Assembly: GCF_009931435.1 (NCBI RefSeq)
Contig: NZ_CP043414.1
Length of the DNA: 64,000 bases
Source of the DNA: Escherichia coli
GTDB lineage: Bacteria > Pseudomonadota > Gammaproteobacteria > Enterobacterales > Enterobacteriaceae
Strand: one strand, 5' to 3'
Shown: positions 24,825 through 51,100 of the stretch, piece after piece
Layout: each line of letters opens with the position of its first letter
Numbering within the stretch: the stretch's first letter is position 1
The notes under the pieces: generated by a model
What the model was told of the DNA's origin: nothing
The model's database searches: none
The model's input: the letters and a program-made list of their open reading frames with translations, nothing else
Made by a program: the position numbers and the translations under genes

Positions 24825-25112
24825 AGGAAGTTTGATAGCGATATCCTCCTGATTTTCAGGCTTTGTACCTGTTCAAGACTTACAACTACAAGCCGCTACG
24901 TGTTAACGCCTCCCAAAATAACCACCGTTAACCGTAGCGGTCATAGATACTATTATTTTAGCCACATTACTGGTGATAATGATAATTGATATTATGGCCG
25001 TATAGAAAATAAGCATTAATTATCAGAAAGTTTATTATGTAAACGCGTCCTAATGATTACGTTATTCCTCTTACCGATATTCGCCCAGAGCAACCATCAA
25101 TTACACATATCA

Positions 25113-26039
25113 TCAATTTTCGAGTTTTACTCTTTTCTCCACCATAAAATCAATAAAAGCACGAACTTTAGAGGGCATTCTCACCCGTGATGAAACATAA
25201 ATATAAAATCCAGGAAATGAAACAGCCCAATCCTCAAGAATCGGCTGTAACTTGCCCGCATTGATATGTTCAGCGATTGCAAAATCCAGATGTTGAATGA
25301 TACCCGTTCCATTCAGCGCCATTCGTATCATGCTTTCGTCATCATTAGAAATATACTTACCTGAAACCTCTATTTCGAACTCTTCATTACCCCCCACAAC
25401 ATTAGAAAACTCCCATGCAGAGAGTGCACCGCTACTTTTATGCCGCAACCGAAGGCAATTATGGTTACTCAGTTCCTGAGGCGTTTCAGGAATACCGTGT
25501 TCTTTTAAATAATCTGGCGATGCCACAGTAACCAGTTTAATAAGCGGAGAAACAGGAACGGCAGTCATATGCTCATCCAGTCCTTGCTCAAGACGTATGC
25601 CCACATCACAGCCGTCCGCAATAATGTTAGATAAACCGTCATCCATAATGAGTTCTATCTTTGTTTTGGGGTAACGAGTAAGAAACTCGCCAATATGAGG
25701 CTCAACAAGCATCCGTGCTGCAACACGGGAGGAATTTATTCTCAACAGGCCTGTAGGTTCAAGTTGGGTATCACCAACATCTTTCAAAGCATCATCAATT
25801 TGCCCCAAAGCCGACACCAGCACTTCATACAGACGCTGTCCTTCCTCAGTAAGCGACATATTGCGGGTCGTACGGTATATCAGCTTGGTGTTAAGACGTT
25901 CCTCAAGAGATTTTAAATTCTGGGACAATGCGGCCCGCGTAATACCCATTTCAGAAGCGGCTCTGGAAAAACTGCCGGCACGAACAATCAGCGCAAACCA
26001 GGCAAGAGAAGGCAAAATTGAAGGCTCTATTTTCATCAT
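25113..26039 (-). CDS. LysR-family transcriptional regulator
   Basis: LysR HTH (GSFSRAASEMGITRAALSQNLKSLEERL); probable start at MMKIEPS; divergent from the hydrolase gene. Confidence 0.85.
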   Translation of the reverse strand: MMKIEPSILPSLAWFALIVRAGSFSRAASEMGITRAALSQNLKSLEERLNTKLIYRTTRNMSLTEEGQRLYEVLVSALGQIDDALKDVGDTQLEPTGLLRINSSRVAARMLVEPHIGEFLTRYPKTKIELIMDDGLSNIIADGCDVGIRLEQGLDEHMTAVPVSPLIKLVTVASPDYLKEHGIPETPQELSNHNCLRLRHKSSGALSAWEFSNVVGGNEEFEIEVSGKYISNDDESMIRMALNGTGIIQHLDFAIAEHINAGKLQPILEDWAVSFPGFYIYVSSRVRMPSKVRAFIDFMVEKRVKLEN

Positions 26040-26195
26040 TGTAAACCTTAACTTAACACTGTGATAGATATTAGACCATTGATGATAACCAATACAAGTC
26101 ATACTATTACGCCGTTCTCGATATGAACACAAATGCCAGTTGCGGATAATAGAAATGATATTTAAATCTGTTTAGGCAAATCCCTGGAGCTTGAA

Positions 26196-27116
26196 ATGAA
26201 AACGGTTTCGATAAAACACACTTACTGGGATATAGCTGCTGATATCTATTTCCCTGACGATTTTAATAGTGAAAAAAAGTATCCTGCCATTATCAGTGCC
26301 CATCCAATTGGAAGCTGCAAAGAACAGACATCGGGTAGTGTGTATGGTGCCGCCCTGGCAAAAGCTGGCTTTATCGTCATTGCTTTTGATGCCAGTTTTC
26401 AGGGAAGCAGCGGTGGAGAACCGCGTTATCTGGAAGATCCAACAATGCGAGTAAAAGACTTCAGCATTGTCGTTGATTACCTTACCACCTTACCTTACGT
26501 TGATGCCGGGCGTATTGGTGTACTGGGTATTTGTGGTGGAGGTGGATATGCCATTAATGCCGCAATGACAGAACGTCGGATTAAAGCCATTGGTACTGTC
26601 ACGGGTGCTAACTACGGGCGTCTTATGCGTGAGGGATTTACAGCGTTTAATCCTATCGGAGCACTCGAAGCAATGGCGCAACAAAGAACAGACGAAGCTA
26701 ACGGCGCAAAACTTCGCGTAGATGATTTGCTCCCTTCTTCTCCGGAAGCAGCTCTTGAAGCGGGATTAACAGAAATAGACCTTTTTGAAGCAACAGAATA
26801 TTATCGTTCGCCACGAGGCTGTGCGCCTAATGGGGTAAATCGTTCGCTATTTTCACATCAGACTGTTGCCGTGGGCTGGGATGCTTTTCATCTTGCAGAA
26901 GTCCTGTTAACTCAACCACTAATGGTTGTAGTGGGCGATAGAGTGGGCGCTTTTGGTGCCTATCGTGACGGCTGCGAAATTATTGGTCGTGCAGCCTCAA
27001 AACATAAAGAGTTGGTCGTGGTTGAAGGTTATTCACATTACGACCTGTATGATAAGCCAGAACCTGTGAAACAGGCGCTCGATAAATTAATTCCTTTTTA
27101 CAAAACACATTTGTAA
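26196..27116 (+). CDS. alpha/beta-fold hydrolase, no signal peptide
   Basis: 306-aa ORF with nucleophile-elbow-like LGICGGGGYA; paralogous to the ORF at 45817..46953. Confidence 0.8.
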   Translation: MKTVSIKHTYWDIAADIYFPDDFNSEKKYPAIISAHPIGSCKEQTSGSVYGAALAKAGFIVIAFDASFQGSSGGEPRYLEDPTMRVKDFSIVVDYLTTLPYVDAGRIGVLGICGGGGYAINAAMTERRIKAIGTVTGANYGRLMREGFTAFNPIGALEAMAQQRTDEANGAKLRVDDLLPSSPEAALEAGLTEIDLFEATEYYRSPRGCAPNGVNRSLFSHQTVAVGWDAFHLAEVLLTQPLMVVVGDRVGAFGAYRDGCEIIGRAASKHKELVVVEGYSHYDLYDKPEPVKQALDKLIPFYKTHL

Positions 27117-28431: not shown

Positions 28432-28903
28432 ATATCTATTACTCTCCCGAGAGTAAAACTATCAAACCAATGAGTAACCGATACAGCCTCGCAAATTCTT
28501 TCAGATAATTAACCCGTCACTGCGGCACGTTCTCTCATAAGGCGTGCCTGCTGTGTAATCCAGTATGTATCCGGCATACTTGACGGTTTAATAGAACTCA
28601 ATTCCTTTCCCAGGTAACCAACAACGATATCTTGTATAACACCCCAGGAGATACGACATTATGATGAGATGAGGTATGCTCCTCAGCGCCAATCAACGCC
28701 AGGGCTGGGCCAGTTTTGAGATCAGACTCATTCCCGGACTGACTTCAGGCGACATATATCAATGACGTTGGGGCAATAAAAGATAGCCGATGTAATACAT
28801 CTATTCAAATTTGTGATACATGTCAAAAAATTGGTTGACCAAACTCGTTATTTATATAAGGGCACTTACGAAGTGCACTCTTTTTTAAAGCGAGGAAGTA
28901 CCA

Positions 28904-29005
28904 ATGAAAGAGAATAAAGTACAGCAAATCAGTCATAAACTGATTAATATCGTTGTTTTTGTCGCAATTGTAGAATACGCCTATTTATTTCTCCATTTCT
29001 ATTAA
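28904..29005 (+). CDS. ykgR: 33-aa hydrophobic small protein (likely YkgR by synteny)
   Basis: ATG at 28904 preceded by GAGGAAG; MKENKVQQISHKLINIVVFVAIVEYAYLFLHFY has a single TM-like segment; lies just upstream of ykgM. Confidence 0.5.
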   Translation: MKENKVQQISHKLINIVVFVAIVEYAYLFLHFY

Positions 29006-29047
29006 TAACGGCAATAAACTGTTCACTTCAGTGATATTTAAAATATG
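28940..29047 (+). repeat. dispersed repeat, copy A (second copy at 48263..48369, about 94% identical)
   Basis: By-eye alignment of about 108 nt shows roughly 6 mismatches and 1 indel. Confidence 0.7.
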
Positions 29048-29340
29048 CATCCTCTCCCTTTTTTTTAAGTGATTATTATATCCGTGGGAGAGGAATACAC
29101 GCTATCAGGTAATCAATCAAACTGCGATAAATCATCGGCCAGTAAAGTGGAGATAGCCTCCATTCTCGAAAAATTCATACTCTCAGCGAAACCATCATCA
29201 ATCACTCATCCAGGCGTTTATGGGAGCGTCGCCAATGGCTGCTAACAATGCCAGACTTCCCCGTTGCCGAAATTCCACATACCACAAATGGTCACAGGGA
29301 TTGGGTGTTGAAATGATCCGGATGAGCATGTATCTTTACG

Positions 29341-29358
29341 GTTATGTTATAACATAAC
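29341..29358. promoter_or_regulatory. Zur box upstream of ykgM
   Basis: Perfect 18-bp palindrome GTTATGTTATAACATAAC centred 17 bp upstream of the ykgM start; resembles the Zur operator. Confidence 0.7.
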
Positions 29359-29366
29359 AGGTAAAA

Positions 29367-29633
29367 ATGATGAAACCCAATATCCATCCTGAGTATCGTA
29401 CTGTGGTGTTCCACGACACCAGCGTTGATGAGTACTTTAAAATCGGCTCGACTATCAAAACAGACCGTGAGATTGAGCTGGATGGCGTAACGTATCCGTA
29501 CGTAACAATTGATGTCTCTTCGAAATCGCACCCGTTCTATACAGGGAAGCTGAGAACAGTGGCATCAGAAGGAAATGTTGCACGGTTCACCCAACGTTTT
29601 GGTCGTTTTGTTAGCACGAAAAAGGGGGCGTGA
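29367..29633 (+). CDS. ykgM: ribosomal protein L31 paralog (type B, zinc-independent)
   Basis: 88-aa [22 protein letters not shown]... with L31 signature and no CxxC zinc ribbon. Confidence 0.92.
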
Positions 29634-29773
29634 TGAAAGTCCTTAACTCTCTGCGTACCGCAAAAGAACGCCATCCAGACTGTCAGATTGTGAAGCGAAA
29701 AGGACGGCTGTATGTGATTTGTAAATCTAATCCACGTTTTAAGGCCGTTCAGGGGCGTAAGAAAAAGCGTTGA
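29633..29773 (+). CDS. ykgO: ribosomal protein L36 paralog
   Basis: Not in the track (below size cutoff). ATG overlaps the ykgM stop (TGATG); translates to [46 protein letters not shown], 46 aa. Confidence 0.88.
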
Positions 29774-29807
29774 TTCATAATTCGCCGGATTAACGATATT
29801 TGTCTGA

Positions 29808-30035
29808 TTAATAATCAGACCGGATTAATGTTGGTGTATTGATTACACCAACATTAATTTTCCTGGAAATATATTCTTTAAGTTCATTTAAAGCCAACTG
29901 CCTGACGTTTCTCTCCGAATATTCCATTATATTAATGTTGATTTGTTGACCAACTTCGCCCCTGTATGCTGGTATCAACTCTCTTTTAGACTGAACAAGC
30001 CACTCCGCCCCCTCCCTTTGCGGAGCAGCCTGCAT
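29808..30035 (-). CDS. hypothetical 75-aa protein (ykgL-like by position)
   Basis: Track ORF only; overlaps the ykgMO terminator hairpin, so it may be spurious. Confidence 0.3.
   Translation of the reverse strand: MQAAPQREGAEWLVQSKRELIPAYRGEVGQQININIMEYSERNVRQLALNELKEYISRKINVGVINTPTLIRSDY
29824..29858 (+). terminator. ykgMO terminator hairpin
   Basis: ATTAATGTTGGTGTA-TTGAT-TACACCAACATTAAT, a perfect 15-bp inverted repeat followed by TTTTCC. Confidence 0.5.
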
Positions 30036-30791
30036 TTACACTCAAACTGTTAAGATGATAAATGTGGTAAATCTGTTGGTACTAACATAAAAACGTTTAC
30101 GCCACAGGAACAGCCTGATCCACCGGTAACCCCATCGCCGACGTTCGAGTGCCAGTTAGAGTAACGCGCACAGATGACTGCACGCAGTGCCCTGTCAAAG
30201 AGGCCATCGTTCCTGTGACAGCTGGCAGCCTTCGTTTAACTTCACTTAATTTGGCTCTTGGGGGGGCTTACCGAACAGATGACGTAGTCACACCTATTCA
30301 ATTTTTCACCACTTATTGGAGTAAACACCCATAACCATTTTGTGCGGCATGTTAATCCATTAAAACACCTTATTTATTGTCAAATCTTCTTTAATGATGG
30401 TCAATAATAGTTTTATGTTCTATTTATTATCATTAAAACTTGTTTTTTTACTAGTCGAGCACAAAACGCATTAAGACTATTCCTAACACCTCAGGGCAAA
30501 GTTCCTGGCTAATATAAAATGCAAGTAAGAATTGAACGTTATATTGCCAATAACCTTATGAAACTGAATGTCTTTTTCTTCTTATCAAAAAAGCAATATT
30601 TTCATTTTTAGTAAATATTGACTTAACCATGGAATTCCTTTTCTGTTCACATATTGACACTCATCAGGAAAAAAACATAAATTTAAGCCCAATCGAAAAT
30701 AATTAAAACTTAATCTCGTTTAACCTATATTGATATGTGCTACGTATCTTATTTACTTCCGATTTACTAACAACACTGAATGTACTTGTAA

Positions 30792-44501: not shown

Positions 44502-44547
44502 CTCATCGCCTTGTGTAACTTATTCAGCAACGCGCGCCCTCGCCGGA

Positions 44548-45741
44548 CTAAAGCGCACCGGCCTTCTGGCGTGCGGTAACAAAGGTCAGTACGCCAGCGC
44601 AAAGGAGCAGCACGCTACTCATAGCAAACGTGCTCTGCCAGCCAAGGCGGTCAAACACAATGCCTCCTGCCGTTGATCCAAGGGCGATGGCGAGCTGAAT
44701 CACCGCGACCATGAGCCCGCCTCCGGCTTCGGCGTTGTCAGGCAACGTACGCGCAATCCATGTCCACCATCCGGTTGGCGCGGCGGTGGCCAGCATGCCC
44801 CAGAGTCCTAACAGCAGCGAGACCGTCCAGACGTGATGCCCGATAAGCATCAGACCGATAGCAATGACGGCCATAAGTCCGGGTATGGCCATCAGCGTGG
44901 GGTAGAATTTTCTGTTGAGAAATGCCGAAACAACCAGCGTGCCAATAAAACCGGCCACGCCGATAATCAGCAAAATCAACGACAAGCCTGAGGAATTAAC
45001 CCGTGTCACCGACTCCAGAAACGGGCGCACATAGGTGAATAGCGCAAACTGCCCCATGAAAAACAGGCCACAAGCTATCATGCCGACCACAACCATGCGG
45101 CGGCTAAATAAGCGGAATACCGTGCCAAATGACGTGTGGCTTTTATTCGCATCCATACTGGGCAGGCTGATGCACTGCCAGATAAAGGCGACAACCGCCA
45201 TGGGCACCAGGCACAAGAAAGCGCCTCGCCATCCGACCGTAGCCCCCAGATAGCTTCCCAGCGGCGCGGCCACGACCGTCGCCAGCGCATTACCGGCATT
45301 GAAAATCGCCAGCGCACGCGTGACCTGTTGCTGCGGCACCAGACGAATCGCCGTTGCCGCAGACATCGACCAGAATCCGCCAATAGCCACACCAATCATC
45401 GCACGACCGACCATATACATCAGATAACTGGAAGCCAGCGCAATAATAAGCCCCGAGACGGCCATCAGAACCGTCATCCCCAGCAGCAGGAACTTACGAT
45501 TCATCTTTCCAGCTAGCGTTGAAAGCGTCAGGCTGGTCAGAACCGCCAGCGCGCCGGAGATAGCAATCCCCTGCCCTGCCAGCCCCTCCGTCACGCCTAA
45601 ATCGCGGGTAATCGGCGTGAGCAGGCTGACGGGCATAAATTCAGAAGCAATCAGCACAAACACGCACAGGGTCATGGCAAAAATACCGCCCCAGTATGCG
45701 TGCTGATGATGAGGTGATGGTGTTTGGCTTAGTGTCGACAT
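44548..45741 (-). CDS. MFS transporter (12-TM, drug/sugar efflux-like)
   Basis: 397-aa highly hydrophobic ORF with MFS-like loop motifs. Confidence 0.85.
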   Translation of the reverse strand: MSTLSQTPSPHHQHAYWGGIFAMTLCVFVLIASEFMPVSLLTPITRDLGVTEGLAGQGIAISGALAVLTSLTLSTLAGKMNRKFLLLGMTVLMAVSGLIIALASSYLMYMVGRAMIGVAIGGFWSMSAATAIRLVPQQQVTRALAIFNAGNALATVVAAPLGSYLGATVGWRGAFLCLVPMAVVAFIWQCISLPSMDANKSHTSFGTVFRLFSRRMVVVGMIACGLFFMGQFALFTYVRPFLESVTRVNSSGLSLILLIIGVAGFIGTLVVSAFLNRKFYPTLMAIPGLMAVIAIGLMLIGHHVWTVSLLLGLWGMLATAAPTGWWTWIARTLPDNAEAGGGLMVAVIQLAIALGSTAGGIVFDRLGWQSTFAMSSVLLLCAGVLTFVTARQKAGAL

Positions 45742-45816
45742 AGTGAAATTTCACAAAGATCAGGATAAAAGCCACCGGCCATAGACCGGTGGCTTTGCAT
45801 CAATTCAGGAGAGGTT

Positions 45817-46953
45817 TTATTTCAGTTTGGTCTGGAAAAATTGTTCGAACTTCGCGAAAGGTATTTTTCCGGCCACGTTATCGTACAGGTCCACGTGATT
45901 TGCCCCTGGTACCACCACCAGCTCTTTGTCTTTACTGCCAACCGCCTTGTAAGCATCTTCAGCAAAATAGCGTGAATGCGCTTTCTCACCGGTCACAATC
46001 AGCGTCGGAATGGTGATTTCACTGGCGTAGCTCAACAGCGGCATATTCATAAATGACAGCGGCATCGTTGCCGTCCACGCCCCGGTAGAGTTAACGGAAC
46101 GTTCGTGGAAGCCGCGCGGCATGCGATAGTAGTCAAAGAACTCTTTCAGTACCGGATGAGGATTTGCCGGCAGCGTTTCTGGCAGAATACGCTCGCCCGC
46201 ACTGACCTTGCCGTTGCTGTCGACATTAATATCATGACCACCGTGAGCGAACGTTCCGCTCTGCGCATCCTTCCAGCGCTGTTCATTCAGATATTGCAGA
46301 ACAGCACGACGGTCGGCGGTAGAATAACGGTCTTTGCCATCCCCCACACCATGGCCCATCGCCCGGCTCATGTCATACATCACGCTGGTAGCTACCGCTT
46401 TAACGCGGGTATCCATCGCCGCGTCGTTCAGCGCCATGCCGCCCCAGCCACAAATACCGAGCAGCCCGATACGGTTGCGATCTACCTCTTTTTGCAGCCC
46501 TAAGAAATCCACCGCCGCGCTGAAATCTTCAGTGTTGATATCCGGTGAAGCGACGTTTCGCGGATAGCCGCCGCTTTCCCCGGTGTAAGAAGGATCGAAC
46601 GCCAGGGTAACAAACCCTCGTTCCGCCAGCGTCTGCGCATACAGGCCGCTGGATTGCTCTTTCACCGCGCCAAATGGCCCACTGACCGCAATCGCCGCCA
46701 GCTTGCGATCGCCACGGTCTTTAGGCAGGTAAAGATCGCCCACTAAGGTGATGCCATATCGGTTCGGGAACGAGACTTTACGGTGATCGACTTTCTGGCT
46801 CTCGGCGAACGTTTTATCCCATTTATCTGTCATGGACACAGGGGCATTAGGATTGGTTGAATCAGCATAACTCATTGTCGTGACTCCACTTAATGATGCG
46901 AAAAGCAGCATGGTCGGCATCGCGATTTTTAGCGTTCGGGTGAAGGCTTTCAT
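45817..46953 (-). CDS. secreted alpha/beta-fold hydrolase
   Basis: Track ORF 45817..46974; probable start at MKAFTRTLKIAMPTMLLFASLSGVTTMSYA (signal peptide); LGICGWGGMA motif; paralog of 26196..27116. Confidence 0.8.
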   Translation of the reverse strand: MKAFTRTLKIAMPTMLLFASLSGVTTMSYADSTNPNAPVSMTDKWDKTFAESQKVDHRKVSFPNRYGITLVGDLYLPKDRGDRKLAAIAVSGPFGAVKEQSSGLYAQTLAERGFVTLAFDPSYTGESGGYPRNVASPDINTEDFSAAVDFLGLQKEVDRNRIGLLGICGWGGMALNDAAMDTRVKAVATSVMYDMSRAMGHGVGDGKDRYSTADRRAVLQYLNEQRWKDAQSGTFAHGGHDINVDSNGKVSAGERILPETLPANPHPVLKEFFDYYRMPRGFHERSVNSTGAWTATMPLSFMNMPLLSYASEITIPTLIVTGEKAHSRYFAEDAYKAVGSKDKELVVVPGANHVDLYDNVAGKIPFAKFEQFFQTKLK

Positions 46954-47139
46954 AAAAATCCCCATAAAAAACAACAGAGAGATACAGGTTTCCGACGGAC
47001 AACACTGCGGTGCTTTACTTTGATGGGGTCATTATAGTGAGCAGAATTAGTGCTGATTAGGGGGCGATTAATGCTAAGATTAATACCATATTGTTATAAA
47101 TTAATGCGGAGATTGCCGGCATGAAGGGGGGATGTTTCA

Positions 47140-48024
47140 ATGGCGAAAAGGGAGAACTACAACGAGCTGTACCTGTTTATGCAGGTGGTGCGGGAAGGCA
47201 GCTTTACCGCAGCGGCTCAGCGGCTGGGTCTTGCTCAGTCAGGAGTCAGCCGTTCTGTTCGCGAGCTTGAAGAAAGGCTCGGCGTCCAGCTGCTGGTGCG
47301 CACCACGCGTAAACTGTCGCTGACGCAAGCAGGCGAGCAGCTCTACCAGAAGACGGCATCTGGATTTGAAATGTTAGATCTTGGGCTTGCCACACTGGCG
47401 CACTATCGAGAGACGCCCTCCGGCACGGTGCGTATCAATGCCAGCCAGCACGCGATTGATAAATGCCTGCTGCCAAAGCTGGCGGTATTTAAACAGCGAT
47501 ATCCTGATATCCGGCTTGAACTGATAAATGAGAGCCGGTTCGTCGATATCATCGAGGAAAGATTCGATGCTGGTGTCCGCCTGGGGCCTGAAGTCGGCCA
47601 GGGTATGGTCGCGGTACGCATCACGCCCGATATGGAGATGGCAATTGTGGGGACTCCGGAACATTTTCGTCGCTATGGTTTTCCGCAAACCCCGGCGGAT
47701 TTAAAGGCGCATCCCTGTATCGCCTATCAGTTTGCCGACGGCAGCGTATACCAGTGGGAACTCAATCAGGATGATAAAAAAATCACTCATCGCCCTGAAG
47801 GGCAATGGGCCCTATCCGACAGCTATATGGAAGCAGAAGCCGCACGGCTGGGCCTCGGATTGGCCTATGTTCCTGTTGAACTGGTTGCGGATGATTTAGA
47901 ACACGGTAAGCTTATCAGAGTGTTGCAGCGTTACAGCCTGCGAATGGAGGGATTGTTTCTCTATTACCCTCATCGCAACGTCTCCCCCGCTCTGCGGATG
48001 GTCATTGATACATTGAAAATCTGA
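47140..48024 (+). CDS. LysR-family transcriptional regulator
   Basis: 294-aa ORF with LysR HTH (GSFTAAAQRLGLAQSGVSRSVRELEERL). Confidence 0.85.
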   Translation: MAKRENYNELYLFMQVVREGSFTAAAQRLGLAQSGVSRSVRELEERLGVQLLVRTTRKLSLTQAGEQLYQKTASGFEMLDLGLATLAHYRETPSGTVRINASQHAIDKCLLPKLAVFKQRYPDIRLELINESRFVDIIEERFDAGVRLGPEVGQGMVAVRITPDMEMAIVGTPEHFRRYGFPQTPADLKAHPCIAYQFADGSVYQWELNQDDKKITHRPEGQWALSDSYMEAEAARLGLGLAYVPVELVADDLEHGKLIRVLQRYSLRMEGLFLYYPHRNVSPALRMVIDTLKI

Positions 48025-48262
48025 ACGTTAACAACGACCGACTCTTCACTGTGCAATATTGTGTCAGGTAGTCACTCTGCGTTCAATTCCAGGGGCCGCT
48101 TTGAGCGAGAAAGAGCGGACTTATCTGTACAAGGGGACTATCCAGCAATGGAGATCACCCATAAGAAAAAAGTACCTGGCTCCCTCGACAACCTTCATCC
48201 GGGAATTTAGCCTCAATCAACATTTTTATATCTGTCAGGTTACTTCATTATGAAAACCGATC

Positions 48263-48369
48263 AATATCGTTGTTTTTGTTGCAATAGTAGAATACGCCTA
48301 TTTATTCCTCCATTTCTATTAATAACGGCCATAAACCGTTCACTTCACTGATATTTAAAATATGCATCC
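48263..48369 (+). repeat. dispersed repeat, copy B (decayed ykgR-like segment)
   Basis: About 94% identical to 28940..29047; the upstream part differs by a roughly 30-nt deletion plus a 1-nt insertion, which destroys the ykgR reading frame. Confidence 0.7.
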
Positions 48370-48734
48370 TTTTCCTGCTTTTCAAGTTGTTCAGCGGCGT
48401 AAGAAAACGTATTAAATATGAATTCGACGATTTAACCATTTCTGTCTGATTGGTAATCATCTGTGATTAATGCTGGTCTATTGATTACGCCAGCATTAAC
48501 CGCTTAGGGATGTATTCTTCCTGATCATATACATCCCTCGAAAAAGAGAGAAAATAAAACTGTGTCCAATATTACTCTACCACTCCAGACCGAAGTATCG
48601 GTAGAATTAGCAGAACGACTGGTACAATAGATTGGGATAGCGTCATTTGTCAGGTATTCCATTGCCTGACAAATGACAATTTTGAGTCAATAGACGTGCT
48701 TCTTGATCATGTCTTACAAATTATACCATGAACC

Positions 48735-49007
48735 TTATGAAGCATCATTTTTACTGACTGGTGTTAACTTTGCTATCATATAAACTCTGTTCTTAAAAAA
48801 CGCGCCCAGAATTTTATATGATTTCCCTTGTTTTTCTGCCTGTAAAGAAATTTCTTTTTCAGTGCTGTTAATGGTTGAACCGACGGCAGTAATCTTTTTG
48901 GCGACGCTACTGAATGATAATAAAGACAGTGTAACCACAACAATTAAAGAACAGATAGTATTCACGTTAATTCTCCTGACAATTGAGAGGGTGAGTTTTA
49001 TATACAT
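48735..49007 (-). CDS. small secreted DUF1471-like protein
   Basis: 90-aa ORF with hydrophobic N-terminus; loose resemblance to YhcN/BhsA-type proteins. Confidence 0.45.
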   Translation of the reverse strand: MYIKLTLSIVRRINVNTICSLIVVVTLSLLSFSSVAKKITAVGSTINSTEKEISLQAEKQGKSYKILGAFFKNRVYMIAKLTPVSKNDAS

Positions 49008-49176
49008 AGGTATTAAACATGAGTCATATTTACTCCAAGAGAAAACACTCCTTCTGTAATTAAACCTTCATCTCCTTCGGGGTGAGCAATACATAATGCA
49101 TCTTGCTATGCAAAACAGGTGGATATCAATTTTCCTCCCGACCTATTTAATAAAACGTGAATATAAAAGTTATTCT

Positions 49177-49997: not shown

Positions 49998-50897
49998 ATG
50001 AAAATCGATCTTAATCTTTTACCCATTTTTATCGCGGTAGCAGAAGAGAGTAATTTCAGTAAAGCCGCCGCACGACTGGGCGTTACCCGTTCAGCGGTCA
50101 GTCAGGGAATAAGACGTCTTGAAGATGCATTCGGGACAATGCTTGTAATGCGGACCACGCGCTCAGTTAATTTGACGGAAGCGGGAGAACGGCTGCATAA
50201 ATCGTTGTCATTACCTTTATCCGGTATTGAGGCAGCGTTCGAAGAGATGGTCTCTGACCATGTACCACGTGGACATCTCAGAATCGCGGTGACGTCGATA
50301 GCAGAAGAATTTCTTTCAGGTCCGCTAATCGCTTCGTTTGCAGCTGCCAATCCAGCCGTTACGCTTGATATTGTTGTCACGGATGAGGAATTCGATATCG
50401 TTGCCGCAGGTTACGATGCTGGCGTAAGGCTCGGAGAGGTCATTGAAAAAGACATGATTGCTGTTCCCCTTACCGGTAAGCAGCGTGAGATGGTCGTTGC
50501 CTCTCCCTCCTATCTCGCAGCCAACAGCACACCTGTTCATCCGCGCGAACTTGTGAATCATAAGTGTATCGGCTGGCGTCAGTCCCCGGAGGTTGCGCCT
50601 TATCGCTGGCCATTTGAAGAAAACGGTAGAGCTTTCGACCTTGCGATTGAACCGCAGATTACGACGAATGATCTGCGTCTGATGTTGAGGCTGGCTCTTG
50701 CCGGCGGAGGAATAACAATTGCCACTCAGGAAACGTTCAGGCCATATATTGAAAGCGGTAAGCTTGTATCGCTGCTTGATGACTTTCTTCCACAATTTCC
50801 GGGCTTCTATCTGTATTTCCCACAGCGTCGCAATATTGCACCAAAGCTCCGCGCCCTGATTGACCACGTCAAGGAATGGCGGCAGCAATTGGCTTAA
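49998..50897 (+). CDS. LysR-family transcriptional regulator
   Basis: 299-aa ORF with LysR HTH; divergent from the SDR gene. Confidence 0.88.
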   Translation: MKIDLNLLPIFIAVAEESNFSKAAARLGVTRSAVSQGIRRLEDAFGTMLVMRTTRSVNLTEAGERLHKSLSLPLSGIEAAFEEMVSDHVPRGHLRIAVTSIAEEFLSGPLIASFAAANPAVTLDIVVTDEEFDIVAAGYDAGVRLGEVIEKDMIAVPLTGKQREMVVASPSYLAANSTPVHPRELVNHKCIGWRQSPEVAPYRWPFEENGRAFDLAIEPQITTNDLRLMLRLALAGGGITIATQETFRPYIESGKLVSLLDDFLPQFPGFYLYFPQRRNIAPKLRALIDHVKEWRQQLA

Positions 50898-51024
50898 ATG
50901 TCTGCACCTGCACTGCCTGATGTCAGAACAGTATTTTGAGAAATTGCCAGGGTTACAATGGCACAAATACGGCACAGGAGGAAAACGTGGTGTAATTGAA
51001 TGTGAGGTAACTTATTGATTTAAA

Positions 51025-51100
51025 TGGTGCCGATAATAGGAGTCGAACCTACGACCTTCGCATTACGAATGCGCTGCTCTACCAACTGAGCTATATCGGC
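51025..51100 (-). tRNA. thrW: tRNA-Thr (anticodon CGU)
   Basis: Reverse complement reads GCCGATATAGCTCAGTTGGTAGAGCAGCGCATTCGTAATGCGAAGGTCGTAGGTTCGACTCCTATTATCGGCACCA, a 76-nt cloverleaf with encoded CCA. Confidence 0.95.

Follow-up and report, generated by a model that had tools for sequence, protein, structure and literature searches.

The ykgR-ykgM-ykgO-ykgL locus and its surroundings

The 64-kb stretch of Escherichia coli DNA analyzed here (the window) carries an intact ykgR-ykgM-ykgO-ykgL locus, which we call copy A, and, 19.3 kb away within the plastic pao-thrW region, a segment of 275 bases beside a LysR-family regulator gene (positions 48254-48528), which we call copy B (Table 1). The gene order, taken from the annotated record of strain 2020CK-00188 and from ARAGORN run on the window, begins on the left with LysR, alpha/beta hydrolase, and flavin oxidoreductase genes, continues with ykgR, ykgM, ykgO, and ykgL, and then passes through the ecp operon, ykgJ, yagU, paoABCD, an MFS transporter gene, an alpha/beta hydrolase gene, and LysR to copy B. 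To the right of copy B lie a hypothetical gene, an SDR oxidoreductase gene, a second LysR gene, thrW, and sequence matching proA-proB of other loci. Over positions 47900-48900 the identity of the window is 99.4% with 2020CK-00188 and 96.7% with strains of types O157:H7 and O55:H7.

Table 1. Features of the intact locus (copy A), of copy B, and of the genes that frame copy B, with the evidence for each.
Feature	Position	Strand	Evidence
ykgR, intact, 33 aa, MKENKVQQISHKLINIVVFVAIVEYAYLFLHFY	28904..29005	+	ORF list; RefSeq annotation of 2020CK-00188
Left TTTTAAG heptamer, at the left end of the interval that copy B lacks	29063..29069	+	Regex search; left blastn match ends at 29070
Zur-box-like palindrome TGTTATAACATAACA, upstream of ykgM, absent from copy B	29345..29359	+	Direct sequence reading
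ykgM, type B L31, 87 aa, absent from copy B	29370..29633	+	Translation; RefSeq annotation
ykgO, type B L36, 46 aa	29633..29773	+	Translation; annotation; alignment
Right TTTTAAG heptamer in ykgO (codons R-F-K), at the right end of that interval	29737..29743	+	Right blastn match starts at 29747
ykgL, 75 aa, convergent with ykgO	29808..30035	-	ORF list; K-12 and 2020CK annotation; alignment
Hairpin, 13-bp stem followed by TTTT, within the ykgL 3' coding end	29824..29858	+	RNA fold -23 kcal/mol, z -6.3
LysR-family regulator, left neighbor of copy B	47140..48024	+	ORF list; annotation
ykgR remnant, codons 12-33 plus stop, KPINIVVFVAIVEYAYLFLHFY	48254..48322	+	blastn; PGAP pseudogene in five strains
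ykgR 3' flank remnant, up to the putative deletion junction, ...CTTTTCAAGT	48323..48387	+	blastn
ykgO tail, GTT CAG CGG CGT AAG AAA ACG TAT TAA	48389..48415	+	Alignments; unannotated in RefSeq
ykgL 3' end remnant, holding the hairpin	48450..48528	-	Alignment to K-12 and to window copy A; 140-nt match
Copy B hairpin, homologous to 29824-29858	48466..48500	+	RNA fold -20.9 kcal/mol, z -5.1
thrW, tRNA-Thr(CGT), island-integration site 2.5 kb right of copy B	51025..51100	-	ARAGORN

The genes of copy A correspond to K-12 b4671 (ykgR), b0296 (ykgM), b4506 (ykgO), and b0295 (ykgL). YkgR is a known 33-aa membrane protein (PMC7549839), and the exact ykgR product of copy A is present in public collections under that name. 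Zur represses ykgMO via a Zur box (PMC9825181), and the palindrome TGTTATAACATAACA, which occurs once in the window at 29345, inside the interval absent from copy B, is probably that box. The ykgO-ykgL junction of copy A (around 29740-29900) is unusually variable among E. coli strains: over 181 nt the window and K-12 share 91.7% identity. The ykgR segment is 98.5% identical in the same comparison, and ykgL is frameshifted in strain 2020CK-00188. The hairpin in the 3' coding end of ykgL has a 9-nt loop by manual pairing and only TTTT behind its stem, and the terminator scan did not report it.

The LysR gene to the left of copy B is the last gene of a 3.6-kb MFS/alpha-beta-hydrolase/LysR module (44523-48120). 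The DNA of this module is 92 to 93% identical to that of Citrobacter amalonaticus, Klebsiella spallanzanii, and Kluyvera, with a LysR protein identity of 98%; with Serratia marcescens the DNA identity is 87%. The module is sharply bounded and resembles a three-gene cassette that was exchanged recently. Homology to the closest genera (Citrobacter, Klebsiella, and Kluyvera) stops at ∼48109-48123, some 130 nt short of copy B. On either side of copy B, the flanks (48110-48253 and 48529-48740) match only the same place in other E. coli. Other strains carry integrase genes between the LysR genes and thrW.

Pairs of LysR and alpha/beta-hydrolase genes occur near both copies, and we considered whether they extend the paralogy between the two regions. 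The pairs compared (25100-27100 versus 45800-48000 and 50000-50900) share only 35 to 43% protein identity and differ in arrangement and orientation, so this likeness is probably coincidence or very deep paralogy that lies outside the duplication.

Copy B retains fragments of three genes in their original order

A blastn comparison of 48100-48700 with 28700-30100, and of 48200-48560 with the entire window, yields two collinear plus/plus matches between the copies and, in the latter search, nothing comparable elsewhere in the 64 kb. The first joins 48254-48387 to 28937-29070 (121/134, 90.3% identity, E 1e-48) and covers on the copy A side ykgR codons 12 to 33 and the 3' flank; the second joins 48389-48499 to 29747-29857 (85/111, 76.6% identity, E 1e-18) and covers the final 8 codons and stop of ykgO plus the downstream hairpin. 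The two blocks lie within 1 nt of each other in copy B and 676 nt apart in copy A, and the gap corresponds to one contiguous copy A interval, the pattern of a relic. Beyond the hairpin, weaker homology extends to ∼48528 and takes in the 3' end of the minus-strand gene ykgL; the copy A counterpart runs from 29808 to ∼29885. The full 140 nt of the copy B tail (48389-48528) match the ykgO-ykgL junction at 74 to 76% identity in ∼2,087 E. coli records, with ykgL and ykgO annotated under these matches. Since they reach E values of about 1e-13 to 1e-15 in a 28-Gb search, even the weaker half of the alignment stands far above chance. Copy B thus consists of fragments of three genes of one module, with order and orientation kept.

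The first-pass annotation of this region had proposed a same-orientation alignment of the two segments and had named a lack of collinearity, or identity at background level, as grounds for giving it up; the matches above are collinear and their weaker half is well clear of background, so the proposal holds. Its figure of ∼94% identity for the ykgR-like stretch is borne out for a core of 96/102 positions (48263-48364 versus 28946-29047), with the copy A coordinates it gave being ∼6 nt off, and the roughly 30 nt that it described as lost from the 5' end of ykgR come to 33 nt (28904-28936) by alignment. It further described a match to the end of ykgO and its terminator hairpin. The ykgO codons are there and the hairpins are homologous, but the hairpin fails the terminator-scan criteria in both copies.

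The ykgR frame of copy B lacks the first 11 codons, ends at the stop of copy A, and agrees with copy A at 21/22 residues. A TGA lies directly upstream in frame, an in-frame ATG, GTG, or TTG is absent, and the same holds in 15/15 aligned copies. An 18-aa gene call at the homologous place in L112, another locus compared, carries a Pfam YkgR match (PF28062). Homology to ykgR is therefore clear, a complete ORF of ∼33 codons with a start is lacking, and because the start codon and the first 11 codons are missing we regard this stretch as a pseudogene rather than a gene. PGAP has marked it as such: its "small membrane protein YkgR, incomplete; missing N-terminus" coincides with the 69 nt of 48254-48322 and sits downstream of the same LysR gene (for example, IUB69_RS17270 in 2020CK-00188 and ECO55CA74_RS32585 in O55:H7 RM12579). 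That annotation ends at the ykgR stop and leaves the adjoining ykgO tail and ykgL 3' fragment unannotated. The ykgR half of copy B is thus already public as a truncated pseudogene, and the ykgO/ykgL half was previously without annotation. In the literature on ykgR and on ykgM/ykgO/Zur we found no mention of a second, collapsed copy, and neither the annotation nor the literature searched connects the PGAP pseudogene with a collapsed ykgMO copy.

All that copy B keeps of ykgO is the last 8 sense codons and the stop, which aligns in frame with the stop of copy A. The copy A sequence reads GTT CAG GGG CGT AAG AAA AAG CGT TGA; the allele of strain PCN033 (GTT CAG CGG CGT AAG AAA AAG CAT TAA) is nearer to it than that of the window. 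The copy B hairpin differs from its copy A homologue by one compensatory change of a T-A to a C-G pair, the loss of two pairs, and the absence of a T-run; CCGCTTAGG follows the stem, and the scan did not report an intrinsic terminator here. Neither ykgM, a complete ykgO, nor the Zur box is present, and copy B holds no ykgMO operon. Compared with the intact E. coli locus, copy B is collinear and 90% and 77% identical in its two halves, but it is without the promoter region, the Zur box, ykgM, and the ykgR start, and it cannot supply the zinc-independent L31/L36 paralogues.

We consider it very likely that copy B is the nonfunctional relic of a second, directly oriented copy of the Escherichia-specific ykgR-ykgM-ykgO-ykgL segment. 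The idea that copy B is a former duplicate that has since collapsed, as first put forward in the first-pass annotation, gains support from the ykgR frame, the in-frame ykgO stop, the ykgL 3' end, and a gap bounded by the same heptamer on both sides.

A probable internal deletion bounded by a short direct repeat

Deletions bounded by microhomology are a general phenomenon in decaying bacterial pseudogenes, and the interval missing from copy B fits this description. It spans 674 bp and holds the Zur box, ykgM, and codons 1 to 37 of ykgO, in agreement with the earlier claim that the Zur box, ykgM, and most of ykgO had been lost; these features all lie between two TTTTAAG heptamers. A microhomology on both sides of the missing interval had also been claimed; within 28901-29900 a regex search finds just two TTTTAAG sites, one at each edge of the interval (29063 and 29737). 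The heptamer has 6 occurrences on the plus strand of the 64-kb window, 2 of them in copy A. Each edge of the lost interval thus carries the same short repeat, and copy B reads TTTTCAAG at its junction. Since the gap equals the 674 bp between the two TTTTAAG copies, an internal deletion at the microhomology is the simplest reading of this structure.

The observed junction, TTTTCAAG(C/T)TGTTCAG, departs from the predicted product, TTTTAAGGCCGTTCAG, such that about three later changes would be needed, and because of these changes the exact crossover cannot be proven and is only deduced. As in other pseudogene deletions of this kind, a 7-nt direct repeat lies at both edges and one copy is kept at the junction; nothing sets this case apart from them as unusual, and the junction is blurred by substitutions and, in most strains, by a 9-nt deletion. 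This secondary 9-nt deletion is found in 12 of the 15 aligned copies, which come from different E. coli backgrounds and all carry the same collapse (15/15). The longer junction allele, found in the window, in 2020CK-00188, and in two further contigs (L110/L111), is ancestral, since it can be aligned with copy A up to AAGT.

Three events would account for the present form of copy B: a left truncation inside ykgR at codon 11/12, a right truncation inside ykgL, and the 674-bp internal deletion between the heptamers, which may have come about by replication slippage or by illegitimate recombination at the 7-nt microhomology. All three would have preceded the divergence of the E. coli lineages that carry the relic, which after its collapse would have drifted as unconstrained DNA. 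The order of the three events, the slippage mechanism, and an intragenomic duplication as the source of the second copy are our inferences from the present-day sequences.

Distribution of the relic and search for an intact second copy

At a threshold of ≥90% identity, the copy B tail is found in 911 records from 5,426 complete E. coli genomes (∼17%). About five-sixths of E. coli (∼83%) are without the relic, K-12 included, in which the entire neighborhood is missing and paoD adjoins the LysR fragment yagP and the CP4-6 prophage. Across the 5,426 genomes, no feature is annotated under the tail matches and no alleles of 80 to 90% identity bridge copy B to copy A.

The first-pass annotation had suggested that strains with an intact second ykgMO copy be sought, and none emerged from the 5,426 complete E. 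coli genomes or from the LysR loci of other genera. The body of ykgO (29633-29746) matches 5,068 places in 5,056 genomes of this collection, 12 more places than matched genomes, with 13 places on plasmid records; because every one of these matches is at ≥95% identity, the collection contains no diverged intact second ykgO. At 78 loci with LysR relatives, comprising 60 from Enterobacterales and distant LysR relatives at 28 to 42% identity, tblastn and blastn detected no ykgR, ykgM, or ykgO within 6 kb, and an L31/L36 gene lies downstream in none of ten diverse public contexts of the exact LysR protein. Because no intact second copy was found, the view that copy B was once complete draws on its fragments alone.

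Candidates for a second copy were also sought among genomes with 2 to 4 places matching the ykgM interval, and those examined are stand-alone ykgM paralogues without ykgR or ykgO-tail sequence. They lie either beside ureG-hok on a urease island (L086 and L089) or in a TraG/TraU conjugative element (L087 and L088). These mobile paralogues, known from the urease/tellurite island of O157:H7-type strains and from the conjugative element, resemble copy B in that pieces of the locus have been copied elsewhere. They are intact, with 77 to 81% DNA identity to the ykgM of the window, and lack ykgR, ykgO, and ykgL, whereas copy B keeps pieces only of the genes that they lack and is dead.

In Salmonella, Citrobacter, and Klebsiella (L098-L103), ykgM-ykgO lies between an EAL-domain gene (pdeB/ylaB-like) and ylaC-maa-hha-tomB-acrB. 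Since these three other genera use the pdeB-ylaC site, the ykgR-ykgMO-ykgL site near thrW is a different one, specific to the Escherichia lineage. The displacement of the locus from the pdeB-ylaC site, together with the occurrence of ykgM alone on the urease island and on the conjugative element, invites a more speculative reading, which we think has only a slim chance of being right: ykgR-ykgMO-ykgL might be a mobile or repeatedly copied cassette, copy B a second and independent landing of it near thrW, and the hairpin an RNA 3'-end or stability element still serving the adjacent LysR transcript.

Age and origin

Contigs taken as Escherichia fergusonii (L090-L097) carry an intact ykgR of the copy A type, with ykgMO, ecp, and pao all absent; ∼90 nt after ykgR they show either an integrase C-terminal scar and thrW or different integrated islands. 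Over 112 shared nucleotides, copy B differs from E. coli copy A by 7 to 10% and E. fergusonii differs from copy A by 15 to 16%. Two states (GTT and TTC) are common to copy B and E. fergusonii and are changed in copy A of both the window and K-12. These shared states and distances point to an origin of copy B after the split from E. fergusonii and before the common ancestor of the copy A sequences of the window and K-12.

The presence of ykgR without ykgMO in E. fergusonii, together with the mobility of ykgM cassettes, raises the question of whether the polarity might be reversed, with the short form ancestral and copy A made by insertion of ykgM-ykgO. We find this scarcely credible: the last 8 ykgO codons of copy B, with their stop in register, make sense only as the leftover of a full gene, the ykgR of copy B is itself truncated, and the homology of E. 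fergusonii to copy A stops at ∼29098 and gives way to the integrase scar and thrW rather than to the copy B junction.

The divergence between copies A and B is uneven, amounting to ∼5 fixed differences per 112 nt in the ykgR half and to 20 to 26% in the ykgO/ykgL half. One duplication evolving under a uniform clock would not give this pattern, which counts against the duplicate-relic reading that we favor. To account for it, either the ykgR half must have been under stronger constraint in the past or subject to A-to-B gene conversion, or the copy A tail must evolve fast. The copy A tail is indeed fast-evolving, with a 7% difference between the window and K-12 against 1% for ykgR, and this explains part of the tail divergence; constraint or gene conversion on the ykgR half may explain the rest. 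In the 22 ykgR codons the fixed differences between A and B are synonymous (4/4), and differences among copy B alleles are mostly nonsynonymous, which may be a faint sign that the ykgR of copy B was once under selection.

The same tail divergence, large for a within-lineage duplicate, is one of several grounds for asking whether copy B was instead imported from a closely related Escherichia lineage, carried in, for example, by a thrW-associated island or with its right-hand neighbors, and decayed later, so that it would be a xenologue relic. Gene flow is concentrated in this region: the neighboring MFS-hydrolase-LysR module shares ∼93% DNA identity with Citrobacter, Klebsiella, and Kluyvera, other strains carry integrases and different islands beside thrW, ykgM paralogues travel on the urease island and the conjugative element, and the ykgMO of Escherichia has itself been displaced from the pdeB-ylaC site. 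We nevertheless judge import to be rather unlikely. Relative to E. fergusonii, the ykgR half of copy B nests with E. coli copy A, to which it is closer than the E. fergusonii sequence is; the shared orientation and the 19-kb spacing suit a local duplication, a donor-type YkgO ending in VQRRKK... is absent among the 120 homologues listed, and the flanks of copy B are unmatched outside E. coli in the loci compared. From these sequences a former duplicate and a fragment from a close relative would nonetheless look the same, and in either case copy B is an old relic of a duplicate or close-relative copy, an ordinary genomic fossil.

Present-day function and significance

Between E. coli lineages, the hydrolase and LysR genes that flank copy B are 98 to 99% identical, the relic 91 to 97%, and the adjacent spacer 84 to 97%. 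Given the gap between 91 to 97% and the 98 to 99% of the flanking genes, the relic drifts like noncoding DNA. Nonsense and missense variants segregate in both possible frames of copy B, no Rfam family matches 47800-49100 at E ≤ 1, and promoter and terminator scans gave no signal from the relic above shuffled controls.

A part of the relic could in principle still work, either the hairpin as a transcription stop or stability element after LysR or the 33-codon ORF at 48250-48351, which is in the +1 frame relative to ykgR. The hairpin folds strongly (-20.9 kcal/mol, z -5.1), with a compensatory replacement of one T-A pair by C-G relative to copy A; a 24-nt stretch around its left arm does not vary among the 15 copies, and the ATG at 48250 is likewise present in 15/15. 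This possibility seems to us very remote. The hairpin has no T-run and is not terminator-like in the scan, one stem pair is disrupted in an O55:H7 allele (L002), and a rearrangement has removed the right arm in the AbiE-linked strains. The +1 ORF is without a Shine-Dalgarno sequence by eye and is interrupted by TAG in L114, and we rejected it as a gene given this stop codon and its lack of constraint. The relic also diverges 3 to 8 times faster than the flanking genes, and ∼83% of E. coli do without it. We conclude that the relic is nonfunctional.

The relic carries little biological weight, in that neither L31B nor L36B can be made from it and signs of selection are absent. It does explain the odd mid-contig partial ykgR pseudogene that PGAP calls in ∼900 complete E. 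coli genomes, and it brings to light two gene fragments that lack annotation, one from the tail of ykgO and one from the 3' end of ykgL. It also offers a clean, datable case of a microhomology-bounded deletion in a decaying duplicate and is one more marker of the heavy history of rearrangement between pao and thrW. Since it occurs in ∼17% of genomes and has two junction alleles, it may serve as a lineage marker. The copy-B-specific sequence of the ykgR flank is ...CACTTCACTGATATTTAAAATATG....

Two further observations concern the sequence to the right of the relic. In one strain group (L005, L108, L109, and L114) all the sequence rightward of the relic has given way to an AbiEii/AbiEi toxin-antitoxin island, with the breakpoint (∼48497 in window coordinates) inside the right arm of the relic hairpin. 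In the window, a second hairpin with a 15-bp stem (GTCATTTGTCAGGTA...) followed by AATTTTGAG occupies 48642-48677, between the relic and the convergent hypothetical gene at 48735-49007, and is the sole terminator-like site in 48000-48800.
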